In this document: in pieces, positions 8,932-32,057 of the stretch
Position numbering within the stretch: position 1 is the first letter of the stretch
How the letters are laid out: the number at the start of each line of letters is the position of its first letter
From: Candidatus Bathyarchaeota archaeon
GTDB lineage: Archaea > Thermoproteota > Bathyarchaeia > Bathyarchaeales > Bathycorpusculaceae
Length of the DNA: 64,000 nucleotides
NCBI GenBank assembly: GCA_963811105.1
Contig: CAWEPZ010000002.1
Location: 64,001 to 128,000 of the forward strand
Reading direction: 5' to 3'
Position numbers and translations under genes: made by a program
Notes under the pieces: generated by a model
Seen by the model: the letters and a program-made list of their open reading frames with translations, nothing else
What the model was told of the DNA's origin: nothing
Databases searched by the model: none

Positions 8932-10092
8932 TTGATGTTTGAATACGCTGACAGAATTAATCGGTTGCCCCCGTACTTGTTTGCTGAGATTGAACGGAAA
9001 ATAAAGGAAAAAAAGGCTCAAGGCGTCGATTTAATTTCTCTTAGCGTCGGTGACCCTGACCTTCCGCCGCCAACATTTATCACTGAAGCGTTAAAAGAGG
9101 AAGCAGCTAACCCTGAGAATCATAATTACTCGTTTAGCCAAGGTGAACCTGACTTTCGAGTTGCAGTTGCAGGATGGTGCAAGAACCGATTCAATGTTGA
9201 CTTGCAGCAGGATCAAGTGGTTGCACTTTTAGGTTCCAAAGAGGGTATAGCAAACATCGCGCGGGCTTTCATAAATCCAGGTGACCGTGTGCTTGTGCCT
9301 GACCCAGCTTACCCTGTGTACGCTAATGGCAGCACCATCCTTTGCGATGGGATCTCGGTGCCGCTACCACTTCTTGAGAAAAACGAATTCAGACCCGATT
9401 TTGACTCAATAAAGTCTGAGGGCGTTAAGATGATGTTTCTTAATTACCCCAATAACCCAACCGCTGCAACAATTGATAAAAAGTTTCTCAAAGAAACTGT
9501 AGAATTCGCTAAGGACAACAACATCATCCTCTGCTACGACAACGCATATTCAGAAGTCACCTTCGACCGCTATCGAGCACCTAGCATCTTGGAGATTGAG
9601 GGCGCTATGGATGTCGTTGTAGAATTTCATTCGCTTTCGAAAACCTTCAACATGACAGGCGACCGAATAGCCTTCGCCGTAGGAAATAAGCAACTTGTAG
9701 CTGGGTTAACGAAAGTGAAGTCACAAATCGATTCAGGACCACCAGTTTACACTCAAAAAGTCGCCGTTAAAGCCTTAGGTGCCTATACAAGCCGCGAAGT
9801 TCCAGAGTTCCTAAAGAAAAACAACCAAATCCTGCAAGAACGTCGTGATCTTCTTGTTGACATGCTCTGTAAAATTGGCTTCAAGTGTGACAAGCCTAAA
9901 GCTACGTTTTATGTATGGGTACGTTGCAAAGGCGATTCAATGGATTTCTCCACAAAACTGCTTGATGCTGGGGTAGCTGTGACGCCGGGCGTTGGCTTTG
10001 GCAAGTATGGTGAGGGTTTTGTCAGGATGACGTTTACGCAGCCAAAAGAACGCATTATTGAGGCCTGCAATAGAATAGCCCGAGCTTTCTAA
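8932..10092 (+). CDS. dapL: LL-diaminopimelate aminotransferase (class I PLP)
   Basis: LPPYLFAEI, GSKEG, NYPNNPT, SLSKTFNMTG.R; last gene of a dap operon that has no dapD/dapE. Confidence 0.85.
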   Translation: MMFEYADRINRLPPYLFAEIERKIKEKKAQGVDLISLSVGDPDLPPPTFITEALKEEAANPENHNYSFSQGEPDFRVAVAGWCKNRFNVDLQQDQVVALLGSKEGIANIARAFINPGDRVLVPDPAYPVYANGSTILCDGISVPLPLLEKNEFRPDFDSIKSEGVKMMFLNYPNNPTAATIDKKFLKETVEFAKDNNIILCYDNAYSEVTFDRYRAPSILEIEGAMDVVVEFHSLSKTFNMTGDRIAFAVGNKQLVAGLTKVKSQIDSGPPVYTQKVAVKALGAYTSREVPEFLKKNNQILQERRDLLVDMLCKIGFKCDKPKATFYVWVRCKGDSMDFSTKLLDAGVAVTPGVGFGKYGEGFVRMTFTQPKERIIEACNRIARAF

Positions 10093-26494: not shown

Positions 26495-26573
26495 GCGGTC
26501 GTCGTCTAGTCTGGTTTAGGACATTAGCCTTCCAAGCTAATGATCCCGGGTTCAAATCCCGGCGACCGCACCA
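26495..26573 (+). tRNA. tRNA-Gly (TCC), intron-less, CCA encoded
   Basis: Acceptor stem GCGGTCG/CGACCGC, anticodon arm TTAGC-CTTCCAA-GCTAA, T arm CCGGG-TTCAAAT-CCCGG; TATA-like CTTAAAT upstream. Confidence 0.96.
26526..26546 (+). repeat. attL core, within tRNA-Gly
   Basis: Identical to 31405-31425. Confidence 0.88.
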
Positions 26574-26621
26574 TTTCTACCTTCTGTTCTAAAAATACAA
26601 CCCGATTTAAGCTCTGTTTGG

Positions 26622-26661
26622 GGTTACTAAATTCTGTAACTGGTTACAATTTTCCGTAACC
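26622..26661. promoter_or_regulatory. Two tandem 20-bp palindromic sites GGTTAC-N8-GTAACY
   Basis: GGTTACtaaattctGTAACT followed immediately by GGTTACaattttccGTAACC. Confidence 0.55.
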
Positions 26662-26926
26662 ATAATTCCAGCGTTCTAAAGCAGCCTCAATTCTTCCCGT
26701 AGCTCCTCAATTTTTACTCGTATCCGATGTTTTAAGCGTCTTAGTGTAATTCGCGTTGAAGCTTTGAGGGACCCGAGTTAAAAACAGCCTGTGTGAACTA
26801 TGCAGATGCGCGTGTCCGATTGCTGCGGAAGCAGAGTTCAATTCGTTGTGAAATAAGAAAAAGTATGGTGCAAAGGCCTTCAAAATTCGCCATTGCTACC
26901 AATTGCATGCGCTTGCAGACTCTTGC

Positions 26927-27283
26927 CTAAATCAGCAGAGGTATGCTTTTTGGCGTCGTTCCGTCGAGAGCAAGGTGACTTCCATATGCAACGCCGAGTG
27001 ATAGCAGCCAAGCTTTTTGATTTTCCGTGAGTTGTTTGTCCTGCAATATTCTGTTGCCGCCATAGGAAATCAAACCCAACGTTGCACCGCTGTGGAACAA
27101 GCTCCTATGATTAGGATTAGTGGCAGGCTCAAGCATATCGGGAACCAACGCAACCGCCGCTCCGCTTATTCCTACCGCAAGCACTTCCCAGAAGTTTATC
27201 GGCTGGTCTTTCGACAATTTGTAAAGCAAGTAGAAAGCACTTGCTAATACGCCTCCCGAAATTGCGTGACCTTTTGCATCCAT
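26927..27283 (-). CDS. Membrane metal-dependent hydrolase (YdjM-like)
   Basis: N-terminal H, PD..EP...HRSLFHS, Y.SHL.LD..T. Confidence 0.8.
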   Translation of the reverse strand: MDAKGHAISGGVLASAFYLLYKLSKDQPINFWEVLAVGISGAAVALVPDMLEPATNPNHRSLFHSGATLGLISYGGNRILQDKQLTENQKAWLLSLGVAYGSHLALDGTTPKSIPLLI

Positions 27284-27297
27284 TCTTTTTCACCTCC

Positions 27298-27537
27298 TCA
27301 ACTATCGTCGCCTAAGATTTTCGCGATTGCAGCGATGCCAAGTAAGAGTAACAGGAAGCCTGCTAAGTTTCCAAGCGCGGTGTCGTTGTTTTGTTTTCCC
27401 GCTTTCAAATCTGCTAAGAATCCACCAACTATCTTGTCAACCATTTCGCTTCTACTTGATGCTGCGCCGCGGCTCACGAGTTCGTCAATAGCTTTGAGGT
27501 GTTCTTGGCGTAATGTAACCAGGACTTTTTCAGACAT
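27298..27537 (-). CDS. Ribbon-helix-helix (CopG-like) regulator with C-terminal hydrophobic helix
   Basis: V.V.L....L..IDELV.RG...SRSE RHH signature followed by FLLLLLGIAAIAKIL. Confidence 0.72.
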   Translation of the reverse strand: MSEKVLVTLRQEHLKAIDELVSRGAASSRSEMVDKIVGGFLADLKAGKQNNDTALGNLAGFLLLLLGIAAIAKILGDDS

Positions 27538-27540
27538 TGT

Positions 27541-27595
27541 TATCTATCCTATATCTATTAGATATAATTAGATATTGTTAGCGTTTCAATAGATA
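27541..27595. promoter_or_regulatory. Divergent promoter region with repeated TATCTA/TAGATA boxes
   Basis: Five copies, including the palindrome ATATCTA-T-TAGATAT, directly upstream of the RHH gene. Confidence 0.5.
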
Positions 27596-27673
27596 AGTGT
27601 TATTGACACGAATAAGTAAAGGAAGAAGACGATTACGTGCAGAAAAACAAATGTTAAATCTTAAAAAGTCTGA

Positions 27674-28678
27674 TTGAGATACATGCACAATCACGATAAT
27701 TCACAAGGCTTGAAAAGATGGCAAATCGTTCAGAAAGCTGCACGAGAACTCGGAAAAGATATCTTCTCAGCAAGTGATATTGTCAAAAAAATTCATGAGA
27801 ATATGCCCGATGTGCCAACAGGGACCATTACAGCTTATGTAATCTCTATGGCTCCGAAGCATCCATCATACGATGAGTATCCAACGCATCATGACTATTT
27901 CGAGTTTCTCGGTAGCGGGAAATATAGGCTGCTAAGTAAAGATTGTTTGCCGCCGACTTCGATGCCGCCTGTTGCCTTTGGTAAAACAGGCGTGTCTTTA
28001 GCAGATGATAACATTAAAAACGATTTTCTGAAAAAATACCGAGATTTAATCGTGTCTTGGGCGAAGGAGCACAAAGATGAGCTTATAGCGGGCAGACGAG
28101 ATTATCGCTGGACGAACAATACCTTAGCAGAATCCTTGGAAAAGCGAAACAATTTGACAAGGTTAATTGTTCAATCAAGAATAAAAAACGATGGCGCGGT
28201 GGACTTGGCAACCCTTGACAAGATTATGGAATGGGGCTTTCCAAAAAATCCTCAATTTACGCCGCGAGACTCAAACGAGTGCTTGAAAAAAACCCGTCAA
28301 GCCTTCAATTTGCTGGATGAAGGAAAACCAGCCGAAGCCATCTGCAAACTCATGTCATTTCCCTTGATAATATCGAGGGCGTCCAAAATAATTGGGCTTT
28401 CAGACCCGAACTATTTCGCAATCTATGATAGCCGAGTCGGGCTTGCCCTTGCTACCCTGCAAGATGGCGGAGAGAGGGTAATCAAAATTCCGGGAAGAAG
28501 ACCACAACCAGGACGGTTTTTCTTGTCGGATGAAGGCAAATGTACTTCTAAGGATTGGGGCGCGAACTATGAGAAACTCGTGTGGGTTTTGGAAGTAATT
28601 GCGAATGTACTTAACGAAGAGGGCTATCCGTTCAACCTTGCAGACGTGGAAATGGCGTTATTCATGGTGGGAAAATAG
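27674..28678 (+). CDS. wHTH (DUF7669-like) fused to an HhH/OGG-glycosylase-like domain
   Basis: N-terminal F...DIV...H...P...TI....F...G.GKYRL; C-terminal KIMEWG, ISRASK..., AIYDSRV, DVEMALF. Confidence 0.6.
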   Translation: MRYMHNHDNSQGLKRWQIVQKAARELGKDIFSASDIVKKIHENMPDVPTGTITAYVISMAPKHPSYDEYPTHHDYFEFLGSGKYRLLSKDCLPPTSMPPVAFGKTGVSLADDNIKNDFLKKYRDLIVSWAKEHKDELIAGRRDYRWTNNTLAESLEKRNNLTRLIVQSRIKNDGAVDLATLDKIMEWGFPKNPQFTPRDSNECLKKTRQAFNLLDEGKPAEAICKLMSFPLIISRASKIIGLSDPNYFAIYDSRVGLALATLQDGGERVIKIPGRRPQPGRFFLSDEGKCTSKDWGANYEKLVWVLEVIANVLNEEGYPFNLADVEMALFMVGK

Positions 28679-28683
28679 AACTA

Positions 28684-29493
28684 ATGAAAGAATATTCAAG
28701 ACAGCATTATGTGCCCCAATTCTACCTTAAGCTGTTTTCGCCAGAAAAGGATGGCGATTATATCTTTTGCTATGACAAGAAAAATGGGAAGACCTTTAGA
28801 ACAAACGCAAGGCAGGTGTGCTATGAAATCGGCTTTAATAGTGATGTGAATAAGCCAGATAAGCTTGTAGAGACGGCTTTTTCATCGCTTGAAGGTAAAT
28901 GTTGCGAGTTATTAATGAAGATTATAAACGCAGAAGACTTGCACGTTTTAGACATAGAAGAATTTGAAAATTTCGTTGAGTTCATGCTGCTGTTTAAGCA
29001 GAGAACCAAGAAACGAAGGGAAATTGTAAGTTTGGCTCGAAATATCTGGCTTGAAAGGAAAAATAGTCAACTTGTAAATAATCAAATTACCGATTGGAAA
29101 GTAGTTTCATCGGCTGACAATCCTGAGCAATCGGACCATCTTTGGTCAATGATTGAAACGTTTGACGATGAGATGCGGCTTATACTCAAAAACGATTGGC
29201 AATTAATCATAAACAAGACTAATGTGCCATTTTTGACATCAGACGACCCATTACTCCAACAGCTTGTTAAAAACGACCCATTATTCAAAGAACCTTACGT
29301 TAAAAACTATTTTGCCTTAACACCAACATTGCTTGTCCATTCCCAACCTTTGGTTGGCAACTATGTGAATTTAACAAGAGCAACCGTAATAGACGAAGAT
29401 TTGGTCCACAATGTTAACCGACTAACATGGAATAACGCTCAAAGGTTCGTAATATCAAAAGAGGACAAATTCCTTGCAACACCCACCTGCTGA
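28684..29493 (+). CDS. DUF4238 domain protein
   Basis: QHYVPQFYLK.F N-terminal motif; PFLTSD.P. Confidence 0.8.
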   Translation: MKEYSRQHYVPQFYLKLFSPEKDGDYIFCYDKKNGKTFRTNARQVCYEIGFNSDVNKPDKLVETAFSSLEGKCCELLMKIINAEDLHVLDIEEFENFVEFMLLFKQRTKKRREIVSLARNIWLERKNSQLVNNQITDWKVVSSADNPEQSDHLWSMIETFDDEMRLILKNDWQLIINKTNVPFLTSDDPLLQQLVKNDPLFKEPYVKNYFALTPTLLVHSQPLVGNYVNLTRATVIDEDLVHNVNRLTWNNAQRFVISKEDKFLATPTC

Positions 29494-29581
29494 GATTGGG
29501 GCTGCAAGGTTTTATAAATTCTGCAAGTTAAAACGCTATCGGGGATAGACAATCAGCGACTTCACTAAAGGAACCAAGGAC

Positions 29582-30346
29582 TTGGTCGAGCAGCTTTATG
29601 GAGCGGAGATTACCAAAAACTTTCCTAATTATGGAGAGTTTTGGATTAAGTTCATAGGCGACCCACAAAAGGACATTCCCGTGCCGTACGGTTTAGATTT
29701 CACAAATGCTCCAACAGGAACGAACATTGCACAGATTAACCAGAGCTACGAGGAGCTTTGTATGGCTCATTACTCACTATTTTGCCATTTAGCAGGAGCA
29801 CATTATCAGCAGGTTGTTTTGGGTGAAGCCATAAAACTCCCTGACTCCAACGAAAAGAAGTTCAAGCATTGGGAAGCTTTTGAAACGAGTTACATCCACC
29901 TTGGCTCCGTTTTTAACCAGATGTATCATGTTTGGGGAATCGTTTTTCTCCTCAGAAATGAGGTACGCAAAGTTATAGACAAGCGGGGCAAGGAACACCT
30001 GGAACCGAAAGTGCATGAAACACTCAAACAATTTCTTGAAAAGAATGGCCAGAAGATGATTAACGACAGAAAAACTAAGATTGACCTTAGCATCACATCT
30101 CTCAGAAACAGTATTGTTCATTTTTCAAGGTCAGCTTCGACTTACCAAAATGGCGAGTTTATGGTCCCCAGACAAAATCAGCAGGTTGTATGGTCAAAAC
30201 AGCCCATGAAGGAAGCATACGAAACATCAGGAAAACTACAAAATGACATCGCAGAAACGGAGAAAATCATTAACGACACTCACGTTTACCTTATTCAGCA
30301 ATATGAAGATTTTCTAACTACAAATAAAATAGCGGTTAACAAGTGA
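29582..30346 (+). CDS. HEPN-like domain protein
   Basis: Helical protein with RxxxxH motif LRNSIVH. Confidence 0.55.
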   Translation: MVEQLYGAEITKNFPNYGEFWIKFIGDPQKDIPVPYGLDFTNAPTGTNIAQINQSYEELCMAHYSLFCHLAGAHYQQVVLGEAIKLPDSNEKKFKHWEAFETSYIHLGSVFNQMYHVWGIVFLLRNEVRKVIDKRGKEHLEPKVHETLKQFLEKNGQKMINDRKTKIDLSITSLRNSIVHFSRSASTYQNGEFMVPRQNQQVVWSKQPMKEAYETSGKLQNDIAETEKIINDTHVYLIQQYEDFLTTNKIAVNK

Positions 30347-30360
30347 AGGAGGCGATGTAG

Positions 30361-30516
30361 ATAACAACCTGTCCAGATTGCGGTTCAACGCTTGTTGAGG
30401 AAACCATTATGACATCCAAGGGGCAAACTAATAATTCAGGTTCTGCTGATGCACGCCTAATTACATACACGAAAATTCTGAAATGCCCAAAATGCCCGTA
30501 CAGAACGTTTGGCTAA
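30361..30516 (+). CDS. Small zinc-ribbon protein, not in the ORF track; ATA start or pseudogene
   Basis: ITTCPDCGS...KCPKCPY, 51 aa; GGAGG at 30348-30352 is 8 nt before ATA. Confidence 0.5.
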   Translation: MTTCPDCGSTLVEETIMTSKGQTNNSGSADARLITYTKILKCPKCPYRTFG

Positions 30517-30529
30517 GTTGACCTGCACC

Positions 30530-31425
30530 TTACACGCCTATTTCCTGCGAAAGCCCACTTCTAAGTTTAGCAAGATAATCCGCGTATTTCGGGTAGAACC
30601 CATCTGCCTGCTTGAGTAAAGCGGTGTAATGATTTGCCCCAATTTTCTTTAGTACGCGCCCTTCGATAAAATCGGCGACGCTTTCAGGAACGTTGAACCC
30701 TTCGCTAATCATCGTGTCAAACGCGAATTTGCGGAGATATTTTGGAGCTGGGAAACCCGTTTTGTAGGCGTAAGCCGATGCTCCGTTTGCGCTGACTTTA
30801 TCTTTATTCCGCTTAAGAAGTTCACAAGCGTAAGGGGTAAAATATGCCGCATACACTAACTTTGAGCCTCGGAAATATCCTAAAGTGCACCTGCAGAATC
30901 CGTTAACCTCCACTATCTCCGCCGAACCTTTGTTAAACTCACCAATTAAACGCTCAGCTTCCGTAAGCCTTAGCCCCGAATCCAAAAGCAAATTGAAGAA
31001 CGCTTGGTACCTTAGCGGCGCATTATGAATTTTGCTGAGAATACTCAAAATTTCGCTTTCAATGGGCACGTTCAAATCTACGCCCACGTTGTCTTTAGGT
31101 ATCGCTTTCCTGAGTACAGCCAGGTAGCCGATGTCTACGCCTTTTAGCTCGTAGAACCTGAAAAGTGCGGATAACGCGCGGTTGATGTTGTGGTTTTGGC
31201 CGTTGGTTAAGTTGGCGCAGATTTTCACAATATCCATCGGCTCGCGGATGACGGTTATGAAACGTTCCAATTGCCTCAAGATTGCCTTCGAGTATGACGA
31301 ATTCAAATGTTGCGCGCCAAGATATTCCTCGAACTCGCTTTTTTCGAGTCGCCAATCTATAAATAAACTCGAATTAAACCGATTTACGCAATTAGAGCCA
31401 GTAGAGCCTTCCAAGCTAATGATCC
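30530..31425 (-). CDS. SSV1-type tyrosine integrase, C-terminal fragment (intC)
   Basis: SGLRL.E, KYLRKF, FIEGR, HY catalytic Tyr; the frame runs through the att copy (IISLEG). Confidence 0.88.
31405..31425 (+). repeat. attR core, partial tRNA-Gly copy
   Basis: 21-bp copy of the tRNA anticodon region. Confidence 0.88.
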
Positions 31426-32057
31426 GGGGATCTTATGGGGCAAAGCCGCTTTTTCAAATAGTAAACGTTATAAAACCGCTTTTGCGATATCGTCTTCTCG
31501 GTGACTTGCATGCGTAAAGTAATAGTGTTAACAGCGATTTTTCTAATTGCGGTTTGGTTTTTAATGCTTAGTTACCAAATTTTTGTTGAAAAGCTCTAAC
31601 CCCATTAGCGTTAACACTGCAAGAGCCTAATTCTGCTTCTGGTGTCATCCTTAGTTCTAACATTACAGTTGGTGTTTTCGTTTGTTCGTTCGCTGTGGAT
31701 GTTTGTGTTATCTTCCGTAATTTCAAACCTATTGTTTGGTAAACAAAAACGAATTTTCACCCAATTCCTAATCGGCTTAATATTGACGATAACAGGTACT
31801 GCGGCATTTGAAGATTGAAGACTTTTGGCTATGACTTAGCCAATCCAAATACTCTGCTATCCAATTCCTTCGCTCCAAAATATTTGGCAACGCCTATTTT
31901 TCTTTCTTTTATCTTTCCCTGCCCTTCATCTTCATGATATAGTTGACTTACGAGCAATCACAAACAATACAAAAAATAGCTTTTTATGAGCAGACAACCT
32001 TTGAGCGAAAAGGTGAAAAGGCACAAGTACTGTCTAATTTGCAAAGGAGACTTAGAA

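Follow-up and report, generated by a model that had tools for sequence, protein, structure and literature searches.

Where does an integrase gene begin when one of its two pieces is written antisense in a tRNA gene? The question arises from a 64,000-nucleotide stretch of DNA of a Candidatus Bathyarchaeota archaeon (contig CAWEPZ010000002.1, positions 64,001 to 128,000; assembly GCA_963811105.1), here called the window and numbered from its own first letter, in which a tRNA-Gly(UCC) gene and the catalytic part of a tyrosine integrase, int(C), carry the two copies of a 21-bp repeat (attL and attR, respectively). A first-pass annotation of this DNA had placed the integrase start codon and the first 16 codons within the tRNA, and had taken the N-terminal piece, int(N), to be essentially just that tRNA sequence. 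On the basis of related elements for which both junctions could be compared, we consider it likely that the window instead holds a decaying cryptic element with an SSV-type ("suicidal", type I) integrase that was split by integration, and that the tRNA-antisense codons are internal to the gene.

The tRNA, the repeat, and the antisense frame

The tRNA-Gly(TCC) was the only copy among the 37 tRNAs detected genome-wide by ARAGORN, and the repeat core within it (AGCCTTCCAAGCTAATGATCC) spans the anticodon stem and loop, the 3' stem, the variable loop, and the first base of the T-stem. Exact copies of this 21-mer were present twice in the window (Table 1) and at no third place in the 3.49-Mb genome, the repeat could be extended to 28 bp with 2 mismatches, and 0 of 100 shuffles gave a matching direct repeat. 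Read on the minus strand from position 26574, the 3' half of the tRNA gives ATG GTG CGG TCG CCG GGA TTT GAA CCC GGG ATC ATT AGC TTG GAA GGC TAA, a micro-open reading frame (micro-ORF) that is translated as MVRSPGFEPGIISLEG before its stop and whose ATG is complementary to the T that follows the CCA end, to A76, and to C75. The first-pass annotation was thus right that the CCA end and the next T form an ATG, and that this half of the tRNA is dual-coding. It had also pointed to a Shine-Dalgarno-like (SD-like) GAAGGT ahead of the ATG; this hexamer lies at -10 to -5 (plus strand, 26579-26584) and matches GGAGGT, the complement of the genome's 16S 3' end (GGATCACCTCCT), at 5 of 6 positions. At the right core copy the same frame reads stop-DPR-IISLEG-STGSNCV and then enters the int(C) ORF, as had been reported, and when the pieces were joined across the core in silico (by coordinates) the frame was open for 307 codons, in agreement with the predicted fusion of the two halves in one unbroken frame. 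The int(C) ORF is flush with attR, the remnants of int(N) are flush with attL, and a single frame crosses the core, which is the arrangement of an attP inside an integrase. The proposal that the integrase was split by its own attP in the SSV manner likewise stands, with its pieces at opposite ends of an insertion of ∼4.9 kb (26547-31425) in the tRNA-Gly gene.

The corresponding site was compared in four genomes of the same genus (G230, G216, G171, and G222). Each of these has a tRNA-Gly(TCC) that is identical or nearly so, at a distance of 123-1093 bp from homologues of window position 32003 or 31554 and with homologues of the left flank on its other side; this spacing shows that ∼5 kb is extra in the window and is bounded by both core copies.

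Catalytic portion of the integrase

The int(C) ORF as listed begins at a TTG (31412-31414) inside the core, and its frame is open to 31432, where it is closed by a TAA at 31433-31435. It scored 84.4 bits (cut-off 27) against PF16795 (Phage_integr_3), the catalytic domain of SSV-type integrases, which passages of PMC8371274 assign to the pTN3-like, pT26-2-like, and SSV suicidal integrases. The ORF also matched phrog_5127 'integrase' (E 7.7e-37) over positions 122-352 of 355, leaving ∼120 profile positions N-terminal of its aligned start. Matches to PDB entries 3uxu, 3vcf, and 4dks (E ∼1e-8) aligned the segments SGLRLTE, RGSK, KYLRKF, DFIEGR, and HY. The 3uxu and 3vcf chains, named only 'Probable integrase' in the match list, we take to be the SSV1 integrase, and its catalytic residues presumably fall within the matched motifs. 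In both chains the same motifs pair with SGLRLTE, KYLRKF, and ...HY..., giving the signature R...KxxR...Y that appears as the SSV1-type consensus in passages of PMC8371274.

The integrase is single-copy in the genome. When the window was compared with L043, a related locus described below, the dN/dS values after att were 0.195/0.617 for codons 17-40, 0.164/1.146 for codons 17-70, and 0.075/1.207 for codons 71-130. Such low ratios show coding constraint in the integrase family, which is not the same as present function.

Relatives in which both junctions are present

Both junctions were obtained for seven loci representing six distinct elements, L050 and L051 sharing their junction sequences (Table 1). 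In all six elements att spanned the tRNA from its anticodon stem to its 3' end (44-50 bp), and the element-side ORF at attL read att in the frame that int(C) uses at attR. That frame extended a further 70-100 codons upstream of att in every case, and the claim that the integrase starts within the tRNA was not supported by this comparison. Nor does int(N) seem to be essentially tRNA sequence: the upstream stretch is a conserved Int(N) domain of ∼80 amino acids in four of the six (L043, L078, L081, and L050), and the window has frameshifted remnants of it upstream of its ATG. The micro-ORF itself aligned with residues 83-98 of the 98-aa L043 int(N) ORF, not with its N-terminus. Elsewhere, L044 kept 46 bp of att at its integrase start, and the L080 genome region contained no exact repeat of at least 24 bp.

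The attL ORFs of L043 (15020-15316, 98 aa), L078, and L081 were 43-48% identical (alignment A4). When 1.84 billion representatives were searched with a profile built from A4, 240 proteins matched at E<=0.001, including 85 at E<=1e-10. Of the 240, 150 were listed; these were mostly 41-181 aa in length, the size of an int(N) ORF, and 3 of the 150 had 383-422 aa. P0153 (383 aa) carries the Int(N) domain at residues 1-73, followed by a T-arm-antisense-like peptide and then PF16795, while in P0235 (422 aa) and P0242 (410 aa) the Int(N) domain is followed by PF00589. The Int(N) domain matched no Pfam or PHROG family. We place the att peptide inside the protein, preceded by an Int(N) of ∼80 residues, because of the element-side frames, the A4 domain, the fused proteins, and the extent of the PHROG profile.

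The codon at the CCA+T position was AAG in L043, GTG in L046, TTG in L050 and L078, and ATG in P0121, a short Int(N)-type ORF with Met-Val at residues 75-76 followed by RSPRFEPG. It is set by whichever base comes after the tRNA end.

A second kind of N-terminal domain was also encountered. In L079 and L057 a ribbon-helix-helix (RHH) domain replaces the A4-type Int(N); L054 was grouped with these two as an RHH-class integrase, and the att peptide of this class is read in the WCGRRDLNP frame. An RHH domain, an att peptide, and int(C) were found in one ORF in P0048, P0084, P0088, P0091, and P0108 (5 of the best 120 int(C) homologues, described below).

On the outer side of attR in L043, a 92-aa ORF (9792-10070) resembles CcdA-like RHH proteins (PF07362, E 1.4e-5) and enters the att copy in a frame other than that of int(C). 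The 5 kb beyond it gave no Pfam match and was not syntenic with the right flank of the window, and this outer region may be a second element in tandem.

Table 1. Features of the window and elements used for comparison. Positions are those of the window.
Feature	Position	Strand	Remarks
tRNA-Gly(UCC) gene	26495..26573	+	Called tRNA-Gly(TCC) by both ARAGORN and Rfam
Micro-ORF	26524..26574	-	ATG + 15 codons + TAA; antisense to tRNA 3' half
attL copy of 21-bp core	26526..26546		Inside tRNA-Gly; exact repeat
int(N) pseudogene	26527..26883	-	tblastn of L043 Int(N) and DNA alignment
int(N), att-proximal part	26527-26643	-	Back in the integrase frame
int(N), middle part	26610-26741	-	Readable in another frame only (LKHRIRVKIEELREELRLL); TAG at 26676-26678
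int(N), remnant ORF	26707-26883	-	Contains FLTRVPQSFNANYTKTLK
YdjM-like membrane protein, 118 aa (cargo)	26927..27283	-	PF04307, E 8.5e-12
79-aa ORF (cargo)	27298..27537	-	No significant family; common to the related element in L046
DUF7669 protein, 334 aa (cargo)	27674..28678	+	PF24706, E 4.5e-14
DUF4238 protein, 269 aa (cargo)	28684..29493	+	PF14022, E 2.8e-34
254-aa ORF (cargo)	29582..30346	+	Weak Cas13a-model match, E 6e-4, not conclusive
int(C), SSV-type integrase catalytic part, 294 codons	30530..31414	-	PF16795, E 1.1e-23
attR copy of 21-bp core	31405..31425		Exact repeat; lacks outer 27 bp of tRNA 3' half
Right host flank	31426..31560		Homology to relatives begins ∼31458-31554
Element L043, in tRNA-Gly-UCC			att 47 bp; ends 5265 bp apart; open codons upstream of att: 100 on element side (attL), 1 on outer flank (attR)
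Element L078, in tRNA-Gly-GCC			att 49 bp; ends 6333 bp apart; open codons: 94 attL, 12 attR
Element L079, in tRNA-Gly-CCC			att 46 bp; ends 8458 bp apart; open codons: 74 attL, 16 attR
Element L081, in tRNA-Arg-GCG			att 44 bp; ends 5576 bp apart; open codons: 79 attL, 23 attR
Element L050/L051, in tRNA-Gly-UCC			att 50 bp; ends 6622 bp apart; open codons: 95 attL, 2 attR
Element L057, in tRNA-Gly-GCC			att 49 bp; ends 6142 bp apart; open codons: 70 attL, 25 attR (contig edge)

The int(N) remnant and the damaged attR

With L043 Int(N) as the tblastn query, residues 6-98 matched window 26805-26527 (frame -2, E 1.3e-21) in an alignment whose middle was poor and contained stops, and residues 27-70 matched 26741-26610 (frame -3, 61% identity), where a single stop interrupts the match. 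By DNA alignment, the window differs from L043 in three lesions: an extra base near 26737 (+1 shift), the TAG at 26676-26678 where L043 has GAG, and a base missing near 26640/26641 (-1 shift; window ctgtaac-tggttaca, L043 ctgtaacctggttaca). The conserved N-terminal motif and the start codon have been lost. Because that one base is missing, an in-frame TAA stands 24 codons upstream of the CCA+T ATG, and it is this stop that makes the ATG resemble a start. The stretch from the TAA to the ATG, with the GAAGGT in it, is homologous to L043 coding sequence (window KQSLNRVVFLEQKVE, L043 KQSLNQVAFQEQGLE). A conserved block by the tRNA (A3), with a TATA-like box and two GGTTAC-N8-GTAAC palindromes, was considered as a promoter and rejected, as it is coding int(N) in relatives.

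In SSV-type integration att comprises a 40-50 bp 3' part of the tRNA. In the window the tRNA is whole at attL, but only the 21 bp of the core (or the 28 with 2 mismatches) of ∼47 bp was kept at attR. Unrelated sequence stands in place of the outer 27 bp and begins sharply where the core ends, and no tRNA-like match was found at attR. The non-tRNA sequence at 31426-31457 has 10 of 27 positions in common with the tRNA 3' part by eye, a possible weak match to L046 lies at 31435-31450, and an origin by strand switch or from a palindrome did not fit. The core still includes the anticodon loop, to which SSV1 strand exchange is mapped in passages of PMC8371274. No tRNA was detected by ARAGORN in the in-silico attB, compared with one in the control attL region as it stands; after excision across the 21-bp core, the only tRNA-Gly(UCC) detected in the genome would thus be gone.

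N-termini of database homologues

With the 294-aa ORF as query, 442 homologues were obtained at E<=0.001. The best 120 were listed, and the named ones among them belonged to Bathyarchaeia, Bathyarchaeota, Crenarchaeota, or Thermoproteota. Alignment A1 comprised 25 sequences, 24 of them hand-picked from the 120 for high query coverage. Many of these homologues start with tRNA-antisense peptides, and P0003 (306 aa) opens with the same 16 residues as the micro-ORF. A simple regular expression for the T-arm-antisense motif was matched within the first 45 residues by 53 of the best 120 (38 at index 5-6). At the DNA level, a T-loop-antisense expression was matched in 14 of 22 metagenome and viral loci and was in the integrase frame in 14/14; in L063 a stop lies two codons upstream of the motif. 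An order-level genome search returned a homologue in 23 of 201 genomes, with the antisense peptide upstream of the integrase in most chromosomal copies.

We conclude that database N-termini of the MVRSPG... type are gene-caller starts on att+int(C) pieces at attR and not true starts. They mislead because database proteins come mostly from integrated copies, in which the sequence upstream of att is the outer flank. Together with an intact 306-aa ORF at attR of L043, these N-termini had favoured an Int(N) of zero length, the ORF starting at the tRNA end and integration swapping only the promoter; this candidate was rejected on the element-side frames.

Long N-terminal extensions were seen in the homologues at L004, L006, L007, and L018 and in P0064, P0092, and P0104. 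Their upstream open frame contains RVQIPPG and VQNPS-type peptides resembling sense-translated tRNA T-arms, and L004 and L007 have an intact tRNA upstream, on the strand of the integrase. In the IMG/VR contigs L072-L077 the integrase match begins 43-181 nt from the contig end (6/6), a pattern that breakage of contigs or provirus calls at a tRNA-like att would be expected to produce.

Proposed organization and points against it

In the free circular form the integrase would be one gene composed of an element-encoded N-terminal domain of ∼80 residues, ∼16 residues encoded by attP as the antisense of the tRNA 3' half, and a catalytic part of ∼290 residues. The frames, their conservation, and the distant fused examples suggest that Int(N)-att-Int(C) is translated in that form as a single protein. 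Crossover in the tRNA would place int(N) with att beside the rebuilt tRNA (attL) and att with int(C) at the far end (attR). In the window, the lost int(N) start, the two frameshifts and the stop, and the loss of the outer 27 bp of attR mark a decaying element that is probably now immobile. The ATG formed by CCA+T would be the codon before the att-encoded Val-Arg-Ser-Pro, whether internal or accidental.

Several observations weigh against this organization. Among close relatives of the window integrase, none was observed with Int(N), att, and Int(C) in one protein; P0153, the sole PF16795-fused protein among the matches listed, is distant (25% identity in the catalytic part), the expression [VIL]TE.[CS]N for an Int(N) motif was matched in the first 200 residues of 0 of the best 120 homologues, and a word-indexed search with L043 Int(N) for longer proteins, itself weak evidence, gave none. 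It is conceivable that the ORF at attL is a small gene in its own right, with att as no more than its end. Of the six comparison elements, L043 and L050 are related and insert into the same tRNA, so the six do not count as fully independent cases. Terminal overlap, as in free circular relatives, was present in 0 of 8 whole contigs, and the whole viral contig L074 contained no direct repeat. The proposed organization does not account for the sharp-edged loss of the outer 27 bp of attR.

Alternative readings

The att+int(C) ORF at attR might still be a working gene, a "headless" recombinase kept by selection after int(N) decayed, with its start at TTG 31412-31414 or at a later ATG and with helper-dependent excision or a domesticated function as possible roles. 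In its favour, no stop or frameshift occurs in the 294 int(C) codons versus three disabling lesions in the ∼93 aligned int(N) codons, a comparison that is post hoc and based on small counts, and the window protein keeps all A1-invariant columns, as it must by definition. Passages of the review PMC8371274 give some precedent for an Int(C) that assists an exogenous integrase; they also describe truncated integrases as inactive in vitro. In the copies of L045 and L046 (see below), in addition, the 5' two-thirds of int(C) are missing. For the window we regard this reading as unlikely. The wider proposition that att+int(C) stays selected as a headless recombinase whose start codon comes from att itself (in the window, the TTG of the core; in relatives, an ATG, GTG, or TTG where the tRNA ends in CCA) is possible, though doubtful.

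It is quite improbable, in our estimation, that the integrase begins at the CCA+T ATG, with int(N) being only the 16 tRNA-antisense codons and excision restoring an integrase of 307 aa. The joined frame of 307 codons would allow this, the GAAGGT could serve such a start, and many homologues are annotated as starting with M/V + RSPGFEPG, but those N-termini stem from attR junctions after integration, at which the frame is closed by the outer flank. The longer element-side frame of all six relatives, with its conserved domain in four and its remnants upstream in the window, argues against a start in the tRNA, as do the homology of the supposed SD and 5' leader to L043 coding sequence, the absence of a conserved ATG at attL, and the origin of the upstream stop in a 1-nt deletion relative to L043.

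That the 21-bp repeat arose by chance or by a duplication other than recombination, with no mobile element involved, would suit an attR devoid of the rest of the tRNA half but is hardly credible in view of the shuffles, the absence of the insertion at the same site in four same-genus genomes, the integrase flush with the repeat and in the att frame, and the homologous elements with full att repeats at the same tRNA.

Related copies and history of the site

The SSV-type element proposed here has related degraded copies at the same tRNA in L045 and L046, both contigs of metagenome-assembled genomes (MAGs). The int(C) of both breaks off at one shared position (window 30773), and a further copy of the tRNA half is present in L045. 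Window 26887-27620 is 91.4% identical to L046, and over all element segments the identity to L045/L046 was 82-96%, in comparison to 65-77% for the host flanks. Because the element identity exceeds that of the flanks, the data point to a family that spread horizontally among these lineages fairly recently and decayed afterwards. The same values leave an ancient, vertically inherited fossil unsupported.

Unusual tRNA-Gly sequences were noted at several other loci. The tRNA-Gly homologues of L039 (780-892) and L045 (12657-12765) are ∼29-33 nt longer than that of the window and were not called by ARAGORN; the extra length may be an intron or an insertion. At the syntenic site of genome G219 (L032), a tRNA-Gly 3' fragment is joined to a D-loop-like piece (2441-2480), a separate T-arm-antisense fragment lies at ∼2610-2630, and the 3.7-kb locus contains no intact tRNA and no integrase. 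Outside the window but in the same genome (G000), contig C9 has two orphan tRNA-Gly-like 3' fragments at 218729-218775 and 223271-223297, 1.5 and 6 kb downstream of a tRNA-Gly(GCC) (217171-217247). Antisense, the first of these reads ATG + VRSPRFEPGSSAWKA + stop, resembling the att/int(N) end, and no integrase homologue was found near the fragments by tblastn at E<=10. Within the genus of the window, 123 to 1093 bp lie downstream of tRNA-Gly(TCC) before the first shared gene (window region 31426-32003), which suggests repeated insertions and deletions at this site.

Cargo genes

The element carries five further ORFs (Table 1). The 254-aa ORF adjoins the DUF4238 and DUF7669 genes; its Cas13a-model match covers residues 111-230, and it contains RNSIVH, which we take to be an R-x4-H motif as in HEPN nucleases. 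Screening of the cargo with NCBIfam and PADLOC gave nothing solid, the PADLOC matches (defence annotation) being weak only.

Relation to known systems and implications

A split int(N)/att/int(C) arrangement with a translated att and targets in the 40-50 bp of tRNA 3' ends is described for SSV1, pTN3, and pT26-2 in passages of PMC8371274 and PMC7253208. The elements examined here resemble those of SSV1/SSV2, pTN3, and pT26-2 in the PF16795 catalytic domain, in an attP located and translated inside the integrase ORF, in the use of the tRNA 3' part as target (att of 44-50 bp in the Bathyarchaeia relatives), and in the outcome of integration, with int(N) and the tRNA overlapping at one end and int(C) left at the opposite one. 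They differ in their host, Bathyarchaeia rather than the hyperthermophiles of the passages in PMC8371274, and in an Int(N) that belongs to no Pfam or PHROG family; in the window, moreover, int(N) is a pseudogene and attR has 21 bp. NitEve-E3 of Thaumarchaeota is similar as a small cryptic element that lacks viral hallmark genes and has an SSV1-like split integrase (PMC6563490); it is from another phylum. A full-text search of the literature (main texts) did not find the SSV-type integrase family in Bathyarchaeota, passages of the Bathyarchaeia virus and MAG papers PMC10848311 and PMC11697101 do not describe the split-integrase layout, and the family is not reported from Bathyarchaeia in any of the passages cited here.

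The window element is a decayed case of the established SSV-type layout, to which it makes a small addition, an Int(N) domain outside the Pfam and PHROG families. If the headless reading were true, integrated Bathyarchaeia elements of this large, previously undescribed clade would keep a catalytic module usable by a superinfecting relative or by the host.

For annotation, the layout is a trap. What is mostly seen of the SSV-type integrases in Bathyarchaeia MAGs is the att+int(C) piece. The N-termini called for such pieces (MVRSPGFEPG..., WCGRRDLNPG...) represent tRNA antisense and not true starts, and the matching int(N) ORFs, of ∼95 aa and with no Pfam family, lie kilobases away beside the tRNA. 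Recognition of the int(N)/int(C) pair gives the exact element boundaries. The self-splitting integrase system has been described for hyperthermophiles and for one thaumarchaeal element (passages of PMC8371274, PMC7253208, and PMC6563490), and it is common in Bathyarchaeia, with 442 homologues of Int(C) and 240 representative clusters of Int(N).

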